From: an uncultured Acidimicrobiia bacterium
GTDB taxonomy: Bacteria > Actinomycetota > Acidimicrobiia > IMCC26256 > JAENVU01
Reading direction: 5' to 3'
Assembly (NCBI GenBank): GCA_963770095.1
Contig: CAVYOO010000003.1
Coordinates: 594,382-658,381, forward strand
Length of the DNA: 64,000 nt
A program made the position numbers and the translations under genes. The stretch's first letter is position 1, and every line of letters starts with the position of its first letter. Under the pieces are notes generated by a model that ran no database searches, was not told the DNA's origin, and saw only the letters and a program-made list of their open reading frames with translations. Positions 2,039 through 62,862 of the stretch are shown piece after piece.

Positions 2039-3208
2039 GTGATGCTCCCGCGGCCGACCGTGCCGCTGAGGACTGCGCTCCTCGCCACGTTCGGCACGCT
2101 CGTCGTCGCGGCCCTCTTGGAAGCCGCGGTCTACGCACCCGGTGGCCACACGGCACTGAGCGACATTCCCGGGCGGTTCATCGCGTGGAACGTGCATCCT
2201 TCGTTGCTGCCGTACCGCGGCCGACCAATTGAGTACCCGGTCGTCATCGGCTACCTCGAGTGGCTGACGGGATGGCTCGGTCGCAGCGCGGGCTCGTTCT
2301 TCGTCGCGAACGGGGTCATCAGCGCGGTGCTGGCGCTGCTCATCACGGCGATGCTGCGTGAGCGTGGCGGTGACCGGATCTGGCGTTGGGCGCTCGGGAT
2401 CCCGCTCGCGCTGTATGCCTTTCACAACTGGGATCTCGTGGCGATGGCGCCGGCGGTTGCGGGGCTCATCGCGTTCGACCGGGGCAAGGACCGCGCGAGT
2501 GGGGTGCTGTTCGCGGTCGGCGCATCGGCGAAGGTGTTCCCCGGCTTGTTCCTGCCCCCGCTCGCGGTGCTGCGCTGGCGAGCCGGCGATCACCGCGGCA
2601 CGCTCCGCTTCGTGGGCGCGTTCGTCCTCACGACGGCAGTCCTGAACGGCCCGGTGGCGATCTGGAACTGGGCATCGTGGATCTACCCGGTGTCGTTCCA
2701 GGGCGGCCGGTCGGCGACGTGGGGCAGCCTCTGGCATTCCCTGCTGGCCACCCCATTCGTGAGTCCCTTGATCGGGAGCCACACGGACGGCGTCACCGAC
2801 GTACTGGCCGCGACCGCGCTCGCCGGCGGGCTGGTCCTCATCTCCGTGTTTGCCGTACGGCGTCACCTCGGTGCGATGGCCGTAGGCGCGGCGGTCGTCG
2901 GTGTGTTTCTCCTCTCGAACAAGGTGTACTCGCCGAACTACGACCTCTGGATCGTGCCGTTCTTCGTGGTGCTGCCCATCGCGCGACGCGTCTGGGTGGG
3001 GTTCGCCGCGAGCACGCTGGCGATCTTCGTCCTCGTCTACGGGCACTTCCACATCGGCTGGTCGACCGGCGTCGTCGATGCGCTGTTGCCGCCCTTGGTC
3101 TTGATCCGCGCGGTCACGATCGTCGCGGTCGTCCTGACCGCCCTGAAGGTCGGTGCGATCAGCGACGGTGCGCTGCGGTCGCCGTTGCGTACGCGTTCGC
3201 CGGATTGA
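2039..3208 (+). CDS. Polytopic membrane protein, DUF2029/GT87-like glycosyltransferase candidate
   Basis: 389 aa with about 10 TM helices and an aromatic/Pro-rich N-terminal loop, typical of actinobacterial polyprenol-dependent mannosyltransferase-like proteins. Divergent from the phosphoesterase gene. Confidence 0.5.
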   Translation: MMLPRPTVPLRTALLATFGTLVVAALLEAAVYAPGGHTALSDIPGRFIAWNVHPSLLPYRGRPIEYPVVIGYLEWLTGWLGRSAGSFFVANGVISAVLALLITAMLRERGGDRIWRWALGIPLALYAFHNWDLVAMAPAVAGLIAFDRGKDRASGVLFAVGASAKVFPGLFLPPLAVLRWRAGDHRGTLRFVGAFVLTTAVLNGPVAIWNWASWIYPVSFQGGRSATWGSLWHSLLATPFVSPLIGSHTDGVTDVLAATALAGGLVLISVFAVRRHLGAMAVGAAVVGVFLLSNKVYSPNYDLWIVPFFVVLPIARRVWVGFAASTLAIFVLVYGHFHIGWSTGVVDALLPPLVLIRAVTIVAVVLTALKVGAISDGALRSPLRTRSPD

Positions 3209-54161: not shown

Positions 54162-54932
54162 TCAGGCTCTCCGGGCCGCGAGCCCGCCGTCGAGCGGGAT
54201 GGTGGTCCCGCTGATGTACGCCGAGTCGTCCGTGGCCAGGAACATGATCGTCTCGACCACGTCCACCTCGGTGCCGAGCCGACCCATCGGCGTGCGCGAC
54301 GCGACCATCTGCTTGATCGACTCGGGGTCCGGCGCCTTCGAGACCATCTCGAGGAACAGCCCCGTCTCGCACGCGCTGGGCGAGACCACGTTGACCCGCA
54401 CGCCGTCGGCCGCGTGCTCGATGGCGGCCTGCTTGGCCAGGTTCACCAGCGCACCCTTCGAAGCGCAGTACGCCGCGTAGCCGGGTGAGCCGATCGCACC
54501 GAGGATCGAACCGAGCAGGATCACCGAGCCGCCACCCGTGCCCACGATCGGCGGGAGCCCGTGCTTCATGCACAGGAACGGACCCTTGAGGTTCACGTCG
54601 AGGACCTGTCGCCACGCGGCGTCGGTCGTGTCGATCACGGACGCGCGGGTCTCGACCGCGGCACTGCAGACGAGCACGTCGAGCCGGCCGTGCTGCTCCA
54701 CGATCGCCTCGAACATCGCGGCAACCTCACCCTCATGGGTGACGTCGACCGTGCTCGGTTCGGCATCCCCACCCGCGTCGGCGATGGCGATCGCGACGCG
54801 TCGGGCTTCGTCCTCGTCGATGTCCGCCACGATCACCGTGGCGGACTCGCTCGCGAGCCGCTGGGCGGCCGCGGCGCCGAGCCCGGATCCACCACCGGTG
54901 ACGACCGCGACCTTGCCGGCGAGACGTCTCAT
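54162..54932 (-). CDS. SDR-family oxidoreductase
   Basis: VVTGGGSGLGAA, CSAAV, YCASKGA. ATG overlaps the stop of the upstream SDR (ATGA). Confidence 0.85.
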   Translation of the reverse strand: MRRLAGKVAVVTGGGSGLGAAAAQRLASESATVIVADIDEDEARRVAIAIADAGGDAEPSTVDVTHEGEVAAMFEAIVEQHGRLDVLVCSAAVETRASVIDTTDAAWRQVLDVNLKGPFLCMKHGLPPIVGTGGGSVILLGSILGAIGSPGYAAYCASKGALVNLAKQAAIEHAADGVRVNVVSPSACETGLFLEMVSKAPDPESIKQMVASRTPMGRLGTEVDVVETIMFLATDDSAYISGTTIPLDGGLAARRA

Positions 54933-55693
54933 CGCAGTGCCGCCAGCCCACCGTCCGCGGGGATGACCGCGCCGGTCGTGTACGCGGAGAGGTCCGATGC
55001 CAGAAACAGCGCGATGCCGGCGACGTCCTCCGCGGTGCCGAGCCGGTGCAGGGGGATCGTCTGCTCGAGATCGGGCAGGAAGTTCACCGGCATCGTCTCG
55101 GCGACCTTCCGGAATCGTGGCGTGTCGATCGAGCCGGGCGCGATGACGTTCGCCCGCACCGCGGGCCCGTACTCCGTGGCGATCTGGCGCATGAGCGCGA
55201 CCAGCCCCGCCTTCGCCGGGCCGTACGCCGCGTAGCCCTCGGACCCGATCAGGCCGAGCACCGACGCCGTGCTGATGATGCTGGCGTTCCCGGTCTCGAT
55301 GAGGTGGGGGAGCGCGGCGCGACACGCCCAGAACACGGCGTCGAGGTTCGTCGCCATCGTGAGATCCCAGTCGTCCTCGCTCGTGTCGACGAGGCGGCCC
55401 GACATCTGGACCGCCGCGTTGTTGTAGAGGATGTCGAGCCGCCCGAAGTGGTTGATCGCCATCTGGACCATCGCGTCGCAGTCCATTCGCTGGGAGATGT
55501 CGGCGTGCACCCCGATGCCGCTGCTCCCGGCCGCGTCCACCCGCGCGATGGTCTCGCCCGCGCCGTCGTCGTCGAGATCGGCGACCACGACTCGCGCGCC
55601 CTGATACGCGAAGAGAACGGACGCGGCGCGGCCCTGACCCGACGCGCCCCCCGTGATCAGCGCGACCCGTCCATCCAACAGTCCCCCGGACAC
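54929..55693 (-). CDS. SDR-family oxidoreductase
   Basis: LITGGASGQGRA, NNAAV, YGPAKAG. Confidence 0.85.
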   Translation of the reverse strand: MSGGLLDGRVALITGGASGQGRAASVLFAYQGARVVVADLDDDGAGETIARVDAAGSSGIGVHADISQRMDCDAMVQMAINHFGRLDILYNNAAVQMSGRLVDTSEDDWDLTMATNLDAVFWACRAALPHLIETGNASIISTASVLGLIGSEGYAAYGPAKAGLVALMRQIATEYGPAVRANVIAPGSIDTPRFRKVAETMPVNFLPDLEQTIPLHRLGTAEDVAGIALFLASDLSAYTTGAVIPADGGLAALR

Positions 55694-55731
55694 GGCCCGA
55701 CAGTACGCCGGTCGCCGTAGGCTGCGCGCTC

Positions 55732-56517
55732 ATGTCGATTCCCGAGAGCGTCTACCTCCCCGATGGCGACGGGTTCTTCGCGACCGACCTCGCTCGGGGC
55801 CCGTGGGATCCGGACGCCCAGCACGGCGGCGCACCAGCCGCGTTGTTGGCGCGGGCGATCGAGCGCCACGACCCCGGCCCGCCGATGCACATCGCCCGGC
55901 TGACGATCGAGCTGCTCCGCCCGGTGCCGCTCGGGCGCATCGACGTCGTGACCCGCACCATCCGGCCGGGCAAGAAGGTGCAGCTGATCGAGTCGACGTT
56001 GCTCGCGAGCGGAACCGAGGTCGCGCGCGCCACGGGTCTCCGGATCCGGGTGAAGGAGCTCGACCTCCCCGTCGAGACCCTGGTCACGGATCAGCTCCCG
56101 ATGGGTTCGACCGTGGAGAGGTTCGCGTTCGAGCGCGTCGGGCCGGTGATGTTCGGCGCTGCGATGGAGTTCCGGCCCGCGCGCGGGCGCATCGACGACC
56201 TGGGGAGCGCGGCCATCTGGTTCCGGCTCCGCGCGCCCATGGTCGCCGGGGAGGAGAACTCGCCGCTCGTGCGCGTCGCGGCCGCCGCGGACTTCGGCAA
56301 CGGCGTGAGCTCGGTGGTGAGCTGGAACTCGGGCTGGATGTTCATCAATCCCGACCTCACGATCACGCTCAGCCGCTACCCGACCGGCGAGTGGGTCGGG
56401 CTCGACGCCGTCACCTACCCGTCCGACGACGGAGTCGGGTTCGCCGAGTCGGCGCTGTACGACGAGGACGGGCGCATCGGCCGCTCGGTCCAGAGCCTGC
56501 TCTTCGACACGATGTAG
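55732..56517 (+). CDS. Acyl-CoA thioesterase (TesB-like double hotdog)
   Basis: ARGPWDPDAQHGGAPAALLARAIE...MHIARLTIELLRPVP and second half WFRLRAP...PDLTITLSRYPTGEWVGL. Confidence 0.75.
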   Translation: MSIPESVYLPDGDGFFATDLARGPWDPDAQHGGAPAALLARAIERHDPGPPMHIARLTIELLRPVPLGRIDVVTRTIRPGKKVQLIESTLLASGTEVARATGLRIRVKELDLPVETLVTDQLPMGSTVERFAFERVGPVMFGAAMEFRPARGRIDDLGSAAIWFRLRAPMVAGEENSPLVRVAAAADFGNGVSSVVSWNSGWMFINPDLTITLSRYPTGEWVGLDAVTYPSDDGVGFAESALYDEDGRIGRSVQSLLFDTM

Positions 56518-56534
56518 CCCTGCCTCCCGCGCGG

Positions 56535-57757
56535 TCATGTGAGCTCGGTTCGGTCGGGGCGGATGACGCGGAGGTCGCGGCCGTCGAACTCGACGATCCA
56601 GTCGGGTTGGTGGATGACGTGGTGGTGGTGGTCGCAGAACAGGATGAGGTGGTCGAGGTCGGTGGGCCCGCCGTGGTGCCATGGGGTGGTGTGATGGGCT
56701 TCGCACCAGCCGGGTGGTCGGTCACAGCCGGGGAATCGGCAGCCCTGGTCGCGGGCGATGATCGCTCGCCGTTGGGCGGGGGTCGGGGTGCGCCGACTCC
56801 GACCCACATTCAGGGGTCGGGAATCGGGGCCGGTGACGACCCGGCTGATCGAGCTGTCACAGAGGAGCCGGTCGATGGCGTGGGGGTGGATGGGGCCGGT
56901 GAACTGGCCGTCGAGGCGCCCGAGCCGGCCTTGGGTGAGGGTGGCCCAGTCGATGACGACAGTGACCTGGGTTTGGGGTCGTTGCTGGTCGTGGAGGTGC
57001 GCGAGCGCGACGTCCGAGATCCGTACGAGGGCGTCGGCGTAGCGCTGTGCCGTGGTGCGCGGGTCGTCGACCCTCGGTGGGTCGACGTAGGCGTGGAGGG
57101 CGGTGACGACTTTCTCGGCGCCGAGGTCGGAGAGGTCTCGGCGGAGAGCACGACGCGCCCGGCGAAGGTCTTCGAGACGTGCAGGCCGTCGCGGTCGCCG
57201 GGTGCGGTCCCATCGGCGGTGGCGAGGTTCCGGAAATGCGCCGCCGCGCGGCGCAACGACCGCAGGTCGCCGCGGCGGGCGAGGGTGAGGAGCTCGGGTT
57301 CGCAGGCGACGAGGGTGTCGTCGTGACCCGCGACTTGGGCGGCGACGATGGTGCGGGTCGCGCCGGTGGAGATCTCCCCGGCCCGCCACGCCCGTCCCGT
57401 CTCGGCGAGCAGCTCGCAGACCTCACCACATTCGATCGCGGCTTTCGCGTCGCCTTCACGCATCCCGGCCCGGTGCCGTAGCCACGACGCGGTCGACGCC
57501 GCCCCATCGGTCGAACCCACCCCCCGGACATGAGCGGCATGGGCCAGGCGAGCGAACACCGCCTCCTGACGGTCCATCTCCCTGCGCAACGCGATCAACT
57601 CCGCCGCGAGCCCACCATCCGACAACTCGACCGGATCAACCTCGCGCGAGGTCGTCCACGACGCCGCGCAACCGGTCGACCGGACGCGCCACCGGGTACG
57701 AAACACCAACCGACACCGTTCACTCCCCACAGCTCGAACCCGTGACGCGGACTGCAC
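56535..57757 (-). mobile_element. DUF222 ('13E12-repeat') HNH endonuclease gene; frameshift at about 57150. Selfish/mobile-type gene
   Basis: N-terminal DUF222 region (LSDGGLAAELIALRREMDRQEAVFARLAHAA...RDGLHVSKTF) in ORF 56810..57757. C-terminal part with HNH motif (CRFPGCDRPPGWCEAHHTTPWHHGGPTDLDHLILFCDHHHHVIH) in ORF 56535..57389. Start approximate. Confidence 0.65.
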
Positions 57758-57846
57758 CGCGGGCCGTGCGACGGGGGAAGCGTCGGGAAGGTCCCATCAC
57801 CCTACACGAACATACGTTCGCATTTCAAGCGGACCCGAGAAACACG

Positions 57847-57885
57847 TTGACTCCGCTAATCCGGATATTTATTATCCGGATAATG
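57847..57885 (+). promoter_or_regulatory. Sigma-A-type promoter (-35 TTGACT 57847-52, 17-nt spacer, -10 TATTAT 57870-75) overlapped by palindromic operator ATCCGGATA-N5-TATCCGGAT; leaderless ATG at 57883
   Basis: AT-rich island in a GC-rich background. Perfect -35. Inverted repeat spans -10, predicted TSS and start codon. Confidence 0.5.
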
Positions 57886-58371
57886 AAGCTCTCCGAAGGG
57901 GTCGAGTGGGGACTCCACTGCGGGGTCCTGCTGGGGTTCCTGGGGCCGGAGGCGTCGCTGCCGACCGCTCGCCTGGCCGAGTACCACGGGGTCCCGGCCG
58001 CCTACCTGGCCAAGCACCTCCAGGCCATGAGCCGGGCCGGGCTGCTGGCGTCGGTGCCGGGCCCCAAGGGCGGGTACCGGCTGGCCCGGCCGGCGGCGGA
58101 CATCAATGTGCTCGAGGTCGTCGAAGCGATCGACGGCCGGGAATCGGCGTTCCGGTGTGCGGAGATCCGTCGCCGGGGGCCCGCCGCCCGTCCGGCGCGT
58201 GAGTACCGCGTGCCGTGCGCGATCCACACCGTGATGAACCGGGCCGACGAGGCGTGGCGCGACGAGCTCGGAGCGGTGTCGCTCGCGGACCTCATGCAAG
58301 AAGTTGTTGCCGGCGCGTCACCCAAGGGCCTGGAACAAGGCGTCAGTTGGATGCAGGAGGTATTGGGATGA
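57883..58371 (+). CDS. Rrf2-family transcriptional regulator (no Cys cluster; non-Fe-S type)
   Basis: MKLSEGVEWGLHCGVLLG...LPTARLAEYHGVPAAYLAKHLQAMSRAGLLASVPGPKGGYRLARPAADINVLEVVEAIDG is a wHTH Rrf2 signature. Confidence 0.85.
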   Translation: MKLSEGVEWGLHCGVLLGFLGPEASLPTARLAEYHGVPAAYLAKHLQAMSRAGLLASVPGPKGGYRLARPAADINVLEVVEAIDGRESAFRCAEIRRRGPAARPAREYRVPCAIHTVMNRADEAWRDELGAVSLADLMQEVVAGASPKGLEQGVSWMQEVLG

Positions 58372-59298
58372 AGGTGTTCGTGACGGGCGCGACCGGAGTC
58401 GTGGGGACCCCGACCGTGGCGAAGCTCGTGGAGGCCGGCCACGAAGTGCGCGACGATCGCGCGCCGGGAGGAGGCCGCGCAGAGGTTGAAGGCGGCCGGC
58501 GCCGAGCCCGTGACCGTCGATCTCTTCGACGCCGCCGGGATCAGCGCAGCCGTCGCGGGGACGGACGCCATCGCGCATCTCGCGACCAACGTGCCCCCGT
58601 TCCCGCAGCTGGTGCGTACCAAGGCCTGGGCGACGCACAACCGGATCCGGACCGAGGGCACCCGCAACCTGGTCGACGCGGCGCGCGCGAACGGCATTGG
58701 CCGCATCCTGAAGGAGTCGATCACGTTCGTCTACGCCGACGGTGGGGACGCGTGGCTCGACGAGACCGCGCCGATCATCGCCCAGCTCGGGCTGATGGCG
58801 CCGACGATCGACGGGGAGAAGATCGCCCTCGAGCTCGGCGAAGACGGTGGCGCGGCGGTCGTGCTCCGCTTCGGGCTCTTCTACGGCGGCGCCAACCGCG
58901 GCACCGACGAGATGCTCCGGCTCGCGCGCTGGCGCGCGTCGATGGTGGCGGGCAAGGGCAGCTCGTTCATGAGCTCGATCCACGCCGAGGATGTCGCGAC
59001 CGCGGTCGTGGCCGCGTTGGACGCGCCCACCGGGATCTACAACGTCTGCGACGACGAGCCCCTCACCCGCCGCGACGCGCTCGACGCGTTCTCCGCCGCG
59101 TTCGACGTCGGTCGGTTGCGCACGAACCCGACCTGGATCATGAAGCTGTTGGCCGGTCCGGCCGCGGCATCGCTCATCGCGTCGCAGCGGGTCTCGAACC
59201 GGAAGTTCCGCGACGCGACCGGGTGGTCACCGATGTATCCGAGCCTGCGCGAAGGCTGGAAGGCCGAACGCACGAAACGGGAGCTGAACCATGCGTGA
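58368..59298 (+). CDS. NAD(P)-binding NmrA-like/atypical SDR epimerase-dehydratase family protein; frameshift at about 58447
   Basis: ATG overlaps the Rrf2 stop (ATGA). MKVFVTGATGVVGTPTVAKLVEAGHEV then +1 frame ARREEAAQRLKAAGAEPVTVDLFD... (ORF 58486..59298). Confidence 0.7.
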
Positions 59299-59725
59299 GA
59301 CGGTGTTACGAATCGGACTGGCGGTCCTCGCGGTTCCCGCATTGATCATCGGGGTCTGGGCGGCGTTCGCCCCGCGCTCGTTCTTCGACGACTTCCCCGG
59401 CCTCGGCCGCGTGTGGGTCGCGCCGGACGGCCTCTACAACCAACATCTGGTTCGTGACGTCGGCGAGCTCAACCTCGCCCTCGTCGTCGTGACCACGGTG
59501 GCGTTGGTGACGCTCGCACCGATGCTCGTGCGAGCCGTCCTGGCGGGCTGGATCGTCTACTCGGTGCCCCACCTCGTGTACCACCTGCGCAACATGGAGC
59601 CGTTCGCGACCGACGACCAGGTGTCGATCGCGGCGAGCCTCGCGCTCGTGCCGATCCTCGCGATCGTCCTGTTCGTCATCGAGGTCCGAGCCCCCCAGGA
59701 GGCGACGGTCGAGCCGGTGACATGA
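59291..59725 (+). CDS. Small 4-TM membrane protein (unknown)
   Basis: 144 aa, four hydrophobic helices, intact. Confidence 0.5.
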   Translation: MRETVLRIGLAVLAVPALIIGVWAAFAPRSFFDDFPGLGRVWVAPDGLYNQHLVRDVGELNLALVVVTTVALVTLAPMLVRAVLAGWIVYSVPHLVYHLRNMEPFATDDQVSIAASLALVPILAIVLFVIEVRAPQEATVEPVT

Positions 59726-60494
59726 TGCGCCCATCACGGTCGACCGCCCGCTCTTCACGTTCGAACACGCCGGCCTCGTCGGAGCCGACGGTCGGGACCG
59801 GTTGGTCGATGTCACCGGGGAGGTCGCGCCCGATGGCGTGACCGTCGTCGTCGGTCCGTCCGGCGCCGGGAAGTCGAGCCTGCTGCGGCTTTGCAACCGA
59901 CTCGAGGTCGCGGACCGGGGTTCGGTGCGCTTCCGTGGTGAGGATGTCGCAGGCATGGACCCCCTCGCGTTACGCCGCCGCGTCGGGATGGTCTTCCAGA
60001 CGCCGACCCCGTTTGCCGGGACCGTGTTCGAGAACCTCCGCGTCGCGCGTCGCGATCTGGACCCGGCGGCGGCGGAGCAGGCGCTCGAACGGGTCGAGCT
60101 CGACGCCTCGTTCCTCCCCCGACCGGCGTCCGAGCTGTCGGGCGGTGAGGCGCAGCGCATGTGCCTCGCGCGGACCCTCGTGACCGGCCCCGAGGTCCTG
60201 CTCATGGACGAGCCGACGTCCTCGGTCGACCCGCAGGCGACCGTCGCGCTCGAACAGCTGGCGCGGCAGCTCCTCGACCACGGAGTCGTCTGCATCTGGG
60301 TGACCCACGACCTCGCGCAGATGCGCCGCCTCGCCGATCAGGTCCTCGTCGTGCTCGACGGCTCGATCGCGCAGGCCGGCCCACTCGCCGACCTCGATCG
60401 GGACGCATCACCGGCGGTCGCTCAGTTCCTCCTCGGCGCGGACGATCCTGCGCCCGGCGAGCGAGCTCACGGAGACCCGGGGGAACATGGCTGA
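59722..60494 (+). CDS. ABC transporter ATP-binding protein, FetA/YbbL-like; likely frameshift at the extreme 5' end
   Basis: GPSGAGKSSLLR, LSGGEAQRMCLARTL, LLMDEPTSSVD. Coding frame (DAPITVDRPLFTFEHAGLV...) opens just after the ATG at 59722 but out of frame with it. TTG at 59802 is the first in-frame start. Confidence 0.75.
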
Positions 60495-61265
60495 CATCGG
60501 CTGGAGCGGGCTGGCGATCTCGCTGGTGCTCGTCGGGATCGCGATCGGACTCTCGATGTGGCGCGGGCTCGGCCTCGAGCGGAGCATCGCGTGGGCAACC
60601 GTGCGCGCGCTCGTGCAGCTGCTCGCGGTGGGCCTCGCGCTGCAGGTGCTGCTGCGGCCCGAGACGTCCCTCGGGTGGTCGGTGCTGTGGGTGCTCGGAA
60701 TGATCGTGTTCGCCGCCGAGACCGTCCGCCGCCGCGCCGCGAGGTGCCGCAGGTGTTCCCTCTCGCGCTGGCCGCGTTCGGCGCCGCGGCGGTCGTCGTG
60801 CTCGGGGTCCTGTTCGGCTTCGGAGTGTTCGAGCTCGACGCGCGGACGCTCATCCCACTTGCGGGTCTGATGATCGGGAACTCGATGACCGCGACGGTGC
60901 TCGTCGCGCGCCGGCTCGTGGAGGAGCTGCGCGACAAGCGGGCCGAGGTCGAGGCCCGGCTCGCGCTCGGTCAGCCGTCCGTCGACGCGGCCGCTCCGTA
61001 CGTCCGCAACGCGCTGCGGACCGCGCTCGTGCCCCAGATCGAGACGACGAAGGCGGTCGGCCTGATCTTCCTGCCGGGGGCGATGACCGGCCTGATCCTC
61101 GCCGGGGTCGACCCGCTGGAAGCGGTGCAGGTGCAGGCCGCGGTGATGTTCGTGGTGCTCGCGTCCGCGGCGACGACCACCGCGGTGGTTGCCCTCGGGG
61201 TCCGCCGGCGGCTGTTCACGGCGGATCACCGGTTGGTCCGGCTGGAGCGGACCGCCGAGCGCTGA
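60487..61265 (+). CDS. ABC permease FetB/YbbM-like (UPF0014); frameshift at about 60745
   Basis: MADIGWSGLAISLVLVGIAIGLS...AAETVRR then +1 frame ...VFPLALAAFGAAAVVVLGV...MIGNSMTAT...PGAMTGLILAGVDPLEAVQVQAAVMFVVLA. Confidence 0.7.
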
Positions 61266-62827: not shown

Positions 62828-62862
62828 GTTGCATTCGGTTCCTCTGGGGAACCGAATGCAAC
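62828..62862. terminator. Perfect 15-bp stem/5-nt loop hairpin GTTGCATTCGGTTCC-tctgg-GGAACCGAATGCAAC
   Basis: Seen in sequence 20 nt after the DUF192 stop, upstream of rsmI. Confidence 0.5.

Follow-up and report, generated by a model that had tools for sequence, protein, structure and literature searches.

A probable RsrR-type operator built into the −10 region and the predicted leaderless start of an Rrf2 regulator's own operon

How is the Rrf2 regulator gene at 57883–58371 (+ strand) of the 64-kb stretch of acidimicrobial DNA analysed here (64,000 nt, in the following "the window") controlled, and what kind of sensor does it encode? An earlier sequence-only reading had proposed a palindromic operator overlapping a canonical promoter, a leaderless mRNA and autorepression by a non-Fe-S Rrf2 protein within a two-gene unit. 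We consider it likely (with a probability of about 0.8) that the 25 bp at 57858–57882 are the operator of an RsrR-type [2Fe-2S] Rrf2 sensor encoded directly 3′ of it, and that this operator forms one unit with the promoter of the sensor's own operon and its leaderless start.

The 40 nt 5′ of the ATG are AT-rich (42 % G+C as compared to 69.4 % in the whole window) and contain a −35 hexamer TTGACT (57847–57852, + strand; read from the sequence and recovered by a promoter scan) and, after a spacer of 17 nt, a −10 hexamer TATTAT (57870–57875, + strand). Only 7 nt (CCGGATA) separate the latter from the ATG at 57883–57885 (+ strand), which is the start codon of the regulator gene, here called rsrR, and at the same time the predicted transcription start site (TSS). 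All of these promoter elements, already listed in the sequence-only reading, can be read directly in the sequence. In a promoter consensus scan of positions 57300–59500, this promoter was the sole sigma-70-like site (10 of 12 matches), while shuffled controls gave 0.2 ± 0.4 sites in the same scan. The predicted operator (57858–57882, on neither strand in particular) is of the RsrR class-1 type with an 11-3-11 arrangement, AATCCGGATAT-TTA-TTATCCGGATA, and encloses a perfect 9-5-9 inverted repeat (57859–57881) that consists of ATCCGGATA (57859–57867), the spacer TTTAT and TATCCGGAT (57873–57881). The −10 hexamer is made up of the last three nucleotides of the operator spacer and the first three of the right half-site. 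It had been claimed that the 8-mer ATCCGGAT occurs twice here and spans the ATG; both copies are present (57859–57866 and 57874–57881) and yield the perfect inverted repeat when each is extended by one base, but the second one does not reach the ATG, ending 2 nt in front of it.

Since perfect 9-5-9 palindromes of any sequence occur four times in the window, the case rests on the specific sequence, the position and the conservation of the box and not on its symmetry alone. The 8-mer is likewise not rare, with four copies in the window versus 1.35 expected (at least four in 6 of 100 shuffles), and the remaining two copies (18100 and 51596) are isolated. The 23-nt composite, in turn, is rare and has a single match in the window at up to three mismatches, as compared to 0.01 expected. 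With a matrix derived from related sites, the box scored 36.7 bits, the runner-up in the window 6.0 bits and the best sites of shuffled sequences 3–17 bits. The matrix scan of the 64-kb window thus revealed no further operator boxes that would make up a local regulon, the runner-up of 6.0 bits being shuffle noise. An additional short palindrome, CGAAC-ATAC-GTTCG, had been placed at 57818–57831; its true position is 57807–57820, 11 nt away. Since the window contains 133 perfect 5-4-5 palindromes, its occurrence is explained by chance, and it was rejected as a functional element.

The encoded regulator (162 aa, as are most of the homologues listed) clearly belongs to the Rrf2 family, matching the Rrf2 profile PF02082 with 109.4 bits (cut-off 30; E 1.9e-31) and TIGR00738 (Rrf2) with 98.3 bits (cut-off 73.3). 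Its best solved relative is RsrR from Streptomyces venezuelae (PDB 6HSD, E 9.2e-41, residues 1–162 versus 1–160), with the runners-up IscR (9e-09) and CymR (4e-06) more than 30 orders of magnitude behind. The window protein and RsrR align over their full length, the N-terminus residue for residue from M1, with a pairwise identity of 49 %, a value that may leave room for a different cofactor or signal. The NCBIfam equivalog models all stayed far below their cut-offs, namely two models for IscR (48.4 bits versus 207.55 and 42.5 versus 275), NsrR (37.1 versus 182), RirA (44.6 versus 193) and CymR (33 versus 195).

The regulator contains three cysteines, two of them invariant, and no CX(5-7)CX(5)C triad. 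The earlier remark that it has no Cys triad is therefore literally true, but it passes over the two invariant cysteines and an invariant glutamate and histidine: E8, W9, H12, H35, C92 and C112 are the same in 20 homologues of 68–86 % identity. Volbeda and co-workers reportedly assigned, in 2019, Glu8, His12, Cys90 and Cys110 as the [2Fe-2S] ligands of RsrR. The residues E8, H12, C92 and C112 of the window protein align with these four. Moreover, C106 of RsrR, presumably a non-ligand cysteine, is a tyrosine at the aligned position, so that exactly the cysteines presumed to be ligands are retained. In RsrR, the cluster is held by two cysteines of one subunit and a glutamate and a histidine of the other (PMC8204329, PMC11138216), and Trp9 flips upon cluster reduction (PMC11138216). 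Trp9 adjoins the glutamate ligand in RsrR, and equivalents of both redox-switch residues are present in the window protein as W9 and H35, the latter corresponding to His33 of RsrR, which is the residue substituted in PDB 6Y45 (6Y45 chain compared with 6HSD). Judged by its sequence, the regulator appears to be an RsrR-type Rrf2 redox sensor with a predicted [2Fe-2S] cluster.

A scan with one genome per species gave 344 relatives, the best 80 of which (59–88 % identity; nearly all Acidimicrobiia or unclassified Actinomycetota MAGs) were used further. Together with the window they form a set of 81 promoters (best 80 of 344 loci plus one), in which a box was defined by 9 or more of the 12 positions of CGGATA-N5-TATCCG being matched. 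Such a box is present 5′ of the gene in 79 of the 81 promoters, and with 11 or 12 matches in 72; the two that fall below 9/12 are a rearrangement (L075) and a locus with a degenerate match only (L043). The distance from the end of the box to the start codon is 3–5 nt in 76 of the 79 box-bearing promoters and exactly 4 nt in 61; of the exceptions, one locus (L011) has its first codons duplicated in tandem (21 nt), and two (L022 and L027) have the box 20–28 nt further upstream. A TANNNT motif made up of the last spacer bases and the first bases of the right half-site is embedded in 73 of these 79 promoters. A −35 element (at least 4 of 6 matches to TTGACA, 16–19 nt from the −10) is present in 53 of the 79, and roughly one third of the related loci have a weak −35 or none. 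The proposal that an operator overlaps the −10 and the predicted +1 is supported by comparison, in that the box, the TANNNT motif and the 3–5-nt distance are all kept in relatives.

Within the half-site, CGGA is essentially invariant, the subsequent T and A are found at 90 %, and the outer positions follow A-W-Y-C. The T-A of the spacer is kept at 75–78 % in promoters of the clade, whereas the spacers of the Streptomyces boxes compared here read cccga, ttcga, gcatg or cgctg, which argues that the spacer serves as a −10 element here; its conservation accordingly points to a promoter function. Covariation is seen between the mirror positions at ±10 and at ±11 (0 and 3 of 500 shuffles, respectively), as a symmetric dimer predicts, and sequence relatedness may contribute to this signal.

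The start of rsrR appears to be leaderless, as had been predicted. No Shine-Dalgarno sequence was found 5′ of its ATG in the window sequence, and no purine-rich one lies between the −10 and the ATG, whereas the downstream gene for a short-chain dehydrogenase/reductase-like protein (SDR) is preceded by AGGAGG (58355–58360, + strand), which lies within the 3′ end of rsrR and 7 nt from the ATG at 58368. The organism hence seems to use Shine-Dalgarno sequences where a leader exists. Furthermore, the distance between the −10 and the start codon (ATG in 62 and GTG in 18 of 81 sequences) is constant within ±1 nt across 76 loci, which would not be expected unless the positions of TSS and start codon are linked. 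In Mycobacterium tuberculosis, TANNNT motifs lie 7–12 bp upstream of TSSs, and 22–26 % of the genes are leaderless (Cortes et al. 2013, PMC3898074). Like the leaderless actinobacterial promoters described there, the present one has a TANNNT 7 nt from the start, no Shine-Dalgarno sequence and ATG or GTG starts among its relatives; unlike them, its −10 doubles as the operator centre and a good −35 is present. Taken together, the conserved layout supports a leaderless, autorepressed promoter with the TSS predicted at the ATG.

Three other explanations have to be weighed against this one. The promoter and operator might be as described, with an mRNA that is not strictly leaderless because transcription starts further upstream, from this promoter or a different one, and translation begins at the ATG without Shine-Dalgarno sequence or at another codon altogether. 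TSS positions are not readable from sequence, the frame is open upstream to a GTG at 57742, and a good −35 is missing in roughly one third of the relatives. Nevertheless, we regard a leadered transcript as unlikely, given that the upstream extension lacks conservation (the thioesterase gene ends there in relatives), that the N-terminus aligns with M1 of RsrR and carries both E8 and H12, and that the −10 keeps its distance to the start codon in so many loci. Alternatively, the protein could be a cluster-free repressor of the CymR/SaiR/HypR type that senses thiols or ligands and represses its own gene via the palindrome, which is what the sequence-only reading had favoured in calling it probably a non-Fe-S regulator. 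Such a protein would be in keeping with the three cysteines and the missing triad, and its operator and promoter architecture would look identical. The assignment was nevertheless abandoned, and we deem it very unlikely: the match to RsrR (9e-41) dwarfs that to CymR (4e-06), the CymR equivalog model stays at 33 bits where 195 are required, the residues E8, H12, C92 and C112 aligned to the presumed RsrR ligands do not vary, and the cysteine lost to tyrosine is presumably a non-ligand, the retained ones being precisely the presumed ligand pair.

It is also conceivable that the inverted repeat works at the RNA level rather than as a protein operator, forming a hairpin in a transcript that reads through from upstream and either terminating the transcript of the neighbouring gene or occluding the start codon. 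It can fold into a stem of 9 bp closed by a loop of 5 nt (for a 41-nt stretch containing the repeat, the minimum free energy is −13.7 kcal/mol), in relatives it follows shortly after the thioesterase stop codon, and its mirror positions ±10 and ±11 covary. However, the identical covariation is predicted by a symmetric dimer, no T-tract follows and no terminator was called, and the Rfam search of 55500–60000 gave no match at E ≤ 1. Moreover, it is the sequence that is kept and not the pairing alone (the essentially invariant CGGA and the T-A of the loop), a near-consensus promoter overlaps the repeat, and the box is perfect here even though a divergent gene of 1.3 kb parts it from the thioesterase gene. 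To a hairpin we therefore give hardly any credence.

In addition to the regulator, the unit that would be governed by the operator comprises two further genes. The stop codon of rsrR and the start codon of the SDR gene overlap in ATGA at 58368–58371, as the sequence-only reading had it, and the SDR gene (58368–59298, + strand; assigned by Pfam and interrupted near 58453) encodes an atypical SDR, that is, an NAD(P)-binding Rossmann protein of about 309 aa. An operon with an NAD(P)-binding protein had been anticipated, and the SDR gene indeed follows rsrR in 63 of the best 80 loci, 41 of which show the 4-nt ATGA/GTGA overlap. The description of this partner as NmrA-like is imprecise: the NmrA profile PF05368 matches with 2.4e-11 and 44.2 bits (cut-off 27), but only at profile positions 4–103 of 298 and hence over the N-terminal Rossmann part, and it is outscored by Epimerase (7.6e-21, 75.1 bits, full length) and NAD_binding_10 (1.2e-16), so that Epimerase/NAD_binding_10-type atypical SDR is the better label. 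NCBIfam models matched the SDR below their cut-offs only, and among solved structures it is closest to SDRs that are themselves uncharacterised. A set of 51 orthologues retains TGxTGxxG and shows no conserved YxxxK dyad, which marks the protein as an atypical SDR; by its sequence, a sensing rather than a catalytic role is possible.

The unit had been proposed to contain two genes. It probably includes a third, encoding a predicted membrane protein of 144 aa without Pfam match (59291–59725, + strand; an open reading frame that overlaps the SDR stop by 8 nt), which is matched by tblastn in 62 of the best 80 loci. Two deviating loci fit a box-controlled three-gene unit as far as gene order can tell: in the rearranged locus L075, a box with 12 of 12 matches is followed by the membrane protein gene, the SDR gene and rsrR, and L038 has an additional box between rsrR and the SDR gene. 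One might go further and picture a two-input unit for Fe-S redox state and pyridine nucleotides, in which the RsrR system of this Acidimicrobiia-centred clade would have shrunk to a 36-bp module of operator, −10, +1 and start codon that drives a three-gene operon with an SDR which, like NmrA, senses NAD(P)+/NAD(P)H and is possibly tethered by the membrane protein. We put this forward tentatively and consider it rather doubtful; if true, it would be a two-input sensing unit of an undescribed sort with an SDR devoid of the catalytic Tyr-Lys dyad.

The conserved upstream neighbour is an acyl-CoA thioesterase-like gene (4HBT_3 by Pfam; 55732–56517, + strand), and in an alignment of close relatives its stop codon lies just 5′ of the rsrR −35. 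Here, a DUF222/HNH gene is found between it and the rsrR promoter (56535–57757, − strand; Pfam DUF222 in both halves). The earlier reading had placed this gene immediately upstream; it lies on the minus strand and is thus divergent from the Rrf2 gene. No copy of it was detected in the 80 related loci or in the rest of the window; its absence from the relatives and its position before an intact promoter suggest an insertion, and it is outside the regulatory unit. The DUF222/HNH gene is split into two reading frames near 57130, and two further genes are similarly affected: the SDR gene carries one extra base (an A at 58453) as compared to four homologues, and a UPF0014/FetB-like permease gene at 60487–61262 is split as well (profile positions 1–81 and 79–242). 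Frameshifts were judged by Pfam checks of the suspect pairs of open reading frames, a GC3 frame plot being too noisy. Three frameshifts within 4.5 kb argue for indel errors of the assembly rather than for three pseudogenes, and the one in the SDR gene is thus probably an assembly error; should the broken frame be real, the operon may be partly defective in this genome.

For the preferred RsrR-type reading, the following course of events can be proposed. A near-consensus housekeeping promoter would be fused with the box, such that spacer and right half-site together provide the −10, while the right edge of the box would abut the transcription start, which coincides with the ATG and would give a leaderless mRNA. 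By analogy to S. venezuelae RsrR, a dimer carrying the oxidised [2Fe-2S]2+ cluster would sit on the box and occlude both −10 and +1, thereby blocking RNA polymerase. One-electron reduction of the cluster would then lead to protonation of a histidine and burial of Trp9 and thus to release of the DNA, as has been described for RsrR in S. venezuelae (PMC9338935, PMC11138216). This release would derepress the operon of rsrR, SDR and membrane protein genes, in which translation of the SDR would be coupled to that of rsrR via ATGA and assisted by its own Shine-Dalgarno sequence.

The closest known system is RsrR from S. venezuelae (Sven6563; Munnoch et al. 2016, PMC5015018; 6HSD/6HSE/6HSM/6Y42), which is the only characterised RsrR in the literature that we found. 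Both systems share the Rrf2 fold, the equivalents of Glu8, His12 and the two cysteines as well as Trp9 and His33 (all invariant in the present clade), the operator core CGGATA-N5-TrTCCG with 9-nt arms and a 5-nt gap (11-3-11), the position of the operator in the promoter of the regulator itself (the nmrA-rsrR intergenic region in S. venezuelae) and a linked gene for an NAD(P)-binding Rossmann protein. The class-1 sites used as EMSA probes in S. venezuelae, ACTCGGATA-cccga-TGTCCGAGA and ACTCGGATA-gtctg-TGTCCGAGT, are both shifted by oxidised [2Fe-2S] RsrR (PMC5015018). The half-sites and their spacing in the window match such bound sites, which by analogy supports the autoregulation that had been predicted for the Rrf2 protein. 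In the rsrR mutant of S. venezuelae, the divergent gene is up by 5.4 log2-fold, while most class-1 targets are unchanged (PMC5015018), so that occupancy need not mean strong regulation. One of the class-1 targets, sven5088, is annotated as an epimerase/dehydratase (PMC5015018). As RsrR has hundreds of binding sites there and its mutant shows almost no phenotype, its role in this organism is unclear (PMC5015018).

The differences concern mainly the layout of the locus and the partner genes. Two tandem boxes and a divergent gene for an NmrA-like protein (247–248 aa) were seen at two Streptomyces loci (L081 and L083, from which the Streptomyces layout was read) and one Micromonospora locus (L085). 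The two boxes are 1 bp apart in Streptomyces, whereas a single box is present here. In Streptomyces and Micromonospora there is also a leader, box B ending 16–44 nt before the ATG, and the rsrR start follows a GGGGAGG Shine-Dalgarno sequence in the two Streptomyces loci and a GGGG in the Micromonospora locus; in the window, the −10 lies within the box, which directly adjoins the start codon. The partner gene is divergent in Streptomyces but downstream and translationally coupled here, and encodes a 248-aa NmrA-like protein there as compared to a 309-aa Epimerase-type atypical SDR here. An orthology of the SDR to the divergent NmrA-like gene of Streptomyces was considered and rejected, as the two proteins resemble each other over the first ~78 residues only (E 7e-07). 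Unlike the Streptomyces system, the present one has a third gene, for the membrane protein, and its regulator lacks the third cysteine of RsrR (C106). The divergent NmrA-like gene and the tandem boxes, in place of which the window has a co-directional SDR gene and a single box, are features of the locus rather than a defining property of RsrR-type proteins. Among the more distant relatives, IscR, NsrR and RirA likewise are winged-helix Rrf2 dimers whose operators are palindromes of about 25 bp and which sense through an Fe-S cluster (as predicted here), but they have the three-Cys ligand motif that is missing in the window protein and their operator sequence differs. The cluster-free CymR, SaiR and HypR share the Rrf2 fold and small autoregulated operons; the similarity to them is weak, however, and they are without the set of Glu8, His12 and two cysteines.

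In summary, the type of regulator, its cluster and its box are already known, while the lineage, the single box enclosing the −10, the predicted leaderless start and the co-directional three-gene operon are new. For the Rrf2 family, this means that a missing Cys triad is not equivalent to a missing cluster, and that Glu8 and His12 together with two cysteines constitute a recognisable signature. The roughly 80 aligned promoters furthermore represent a natural mutagenesis series, in which operator positions (CGGA-T-A) may be told from promoter positions (the T-A of the spacer). Having one perfect box and a constant three-gene operon, the system is much simpler than that of S. venezuelae and could possibly serve to look for the signal that reduces the cluster and for the function of the regulated NAD(P)-binding protein.

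The DUF222/HNH gene (56535-57757, minus strand) is flanked by the conserved acyl-CoA thioesterase-like gene and by the promoter of rsrR, the RsrR-like Rrf2 regulator gene. It is missing from all 80 related loci and no second copy was found within the window, and it therefore looks like a lineage-specific insertion. Directly upstream of the thioesterase gene lies a pair of overlapping SDR-like ORFs on the minus strand (54162-55733 and 54929-55693; pair at 54162-55693), described here from ORF translations only.

The frame of the DUF222/HNH gene is broken in two near 57130. In the SDR gene of the predicted rsrR operon, one additional base (A) is present at 58453 as compared to four homologues, such that the frame is lost past HEVR and the remaining protein is read in the +1 frame up to 59298. 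The stretch 59802-61262 encodes an ABC ATPase and, after it, a UPF0014/FetB-like permease. The permease is likewise split into two frames: the break falls near 60740, and the two parts match positions 1-81 and 79-242 of the Pfam profile. This is the third frameshift inside 4.5 kb of the window, and such an accumulation suggests that the frameshifts in this stretch are indel errors of the assembly.

Besides the RsrR box, the predicted operator overlapping the rsrR promoter, the window holds three perfect 9-5-9 palindromes (54823-54845, 57065-57087, and 62834-62856), each GC-rich and unlike the box in sequence; on a rough reckoning, chance alone should yield about one. Among the relatives, several variant arrangements were observed. 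In L011 (about 2960-3012), the first rsrR codons are tandemly duplicated (21 nt; ATGCGTATCTCCGAAGGCTA ATGCGTATCTCC), and the copy adjoining the box meets a stop after six codons. An additional, weaker box lies between rsrR and the SDR gene in L038 (3625-3647). All three operon genes are present in L075 (1573-3492), but rearranged: the box comes first, with a leader after it, then the membrane protein gene, the SDR gene and finally rsrR.

The AGGAGG Shine-Dalgarno sequence of the SDR gene (58355-58360) is located within the final rsrR codons (…MQEVLG), and this embedding may partly account for the conservation of the WMQEVL C-terminus.
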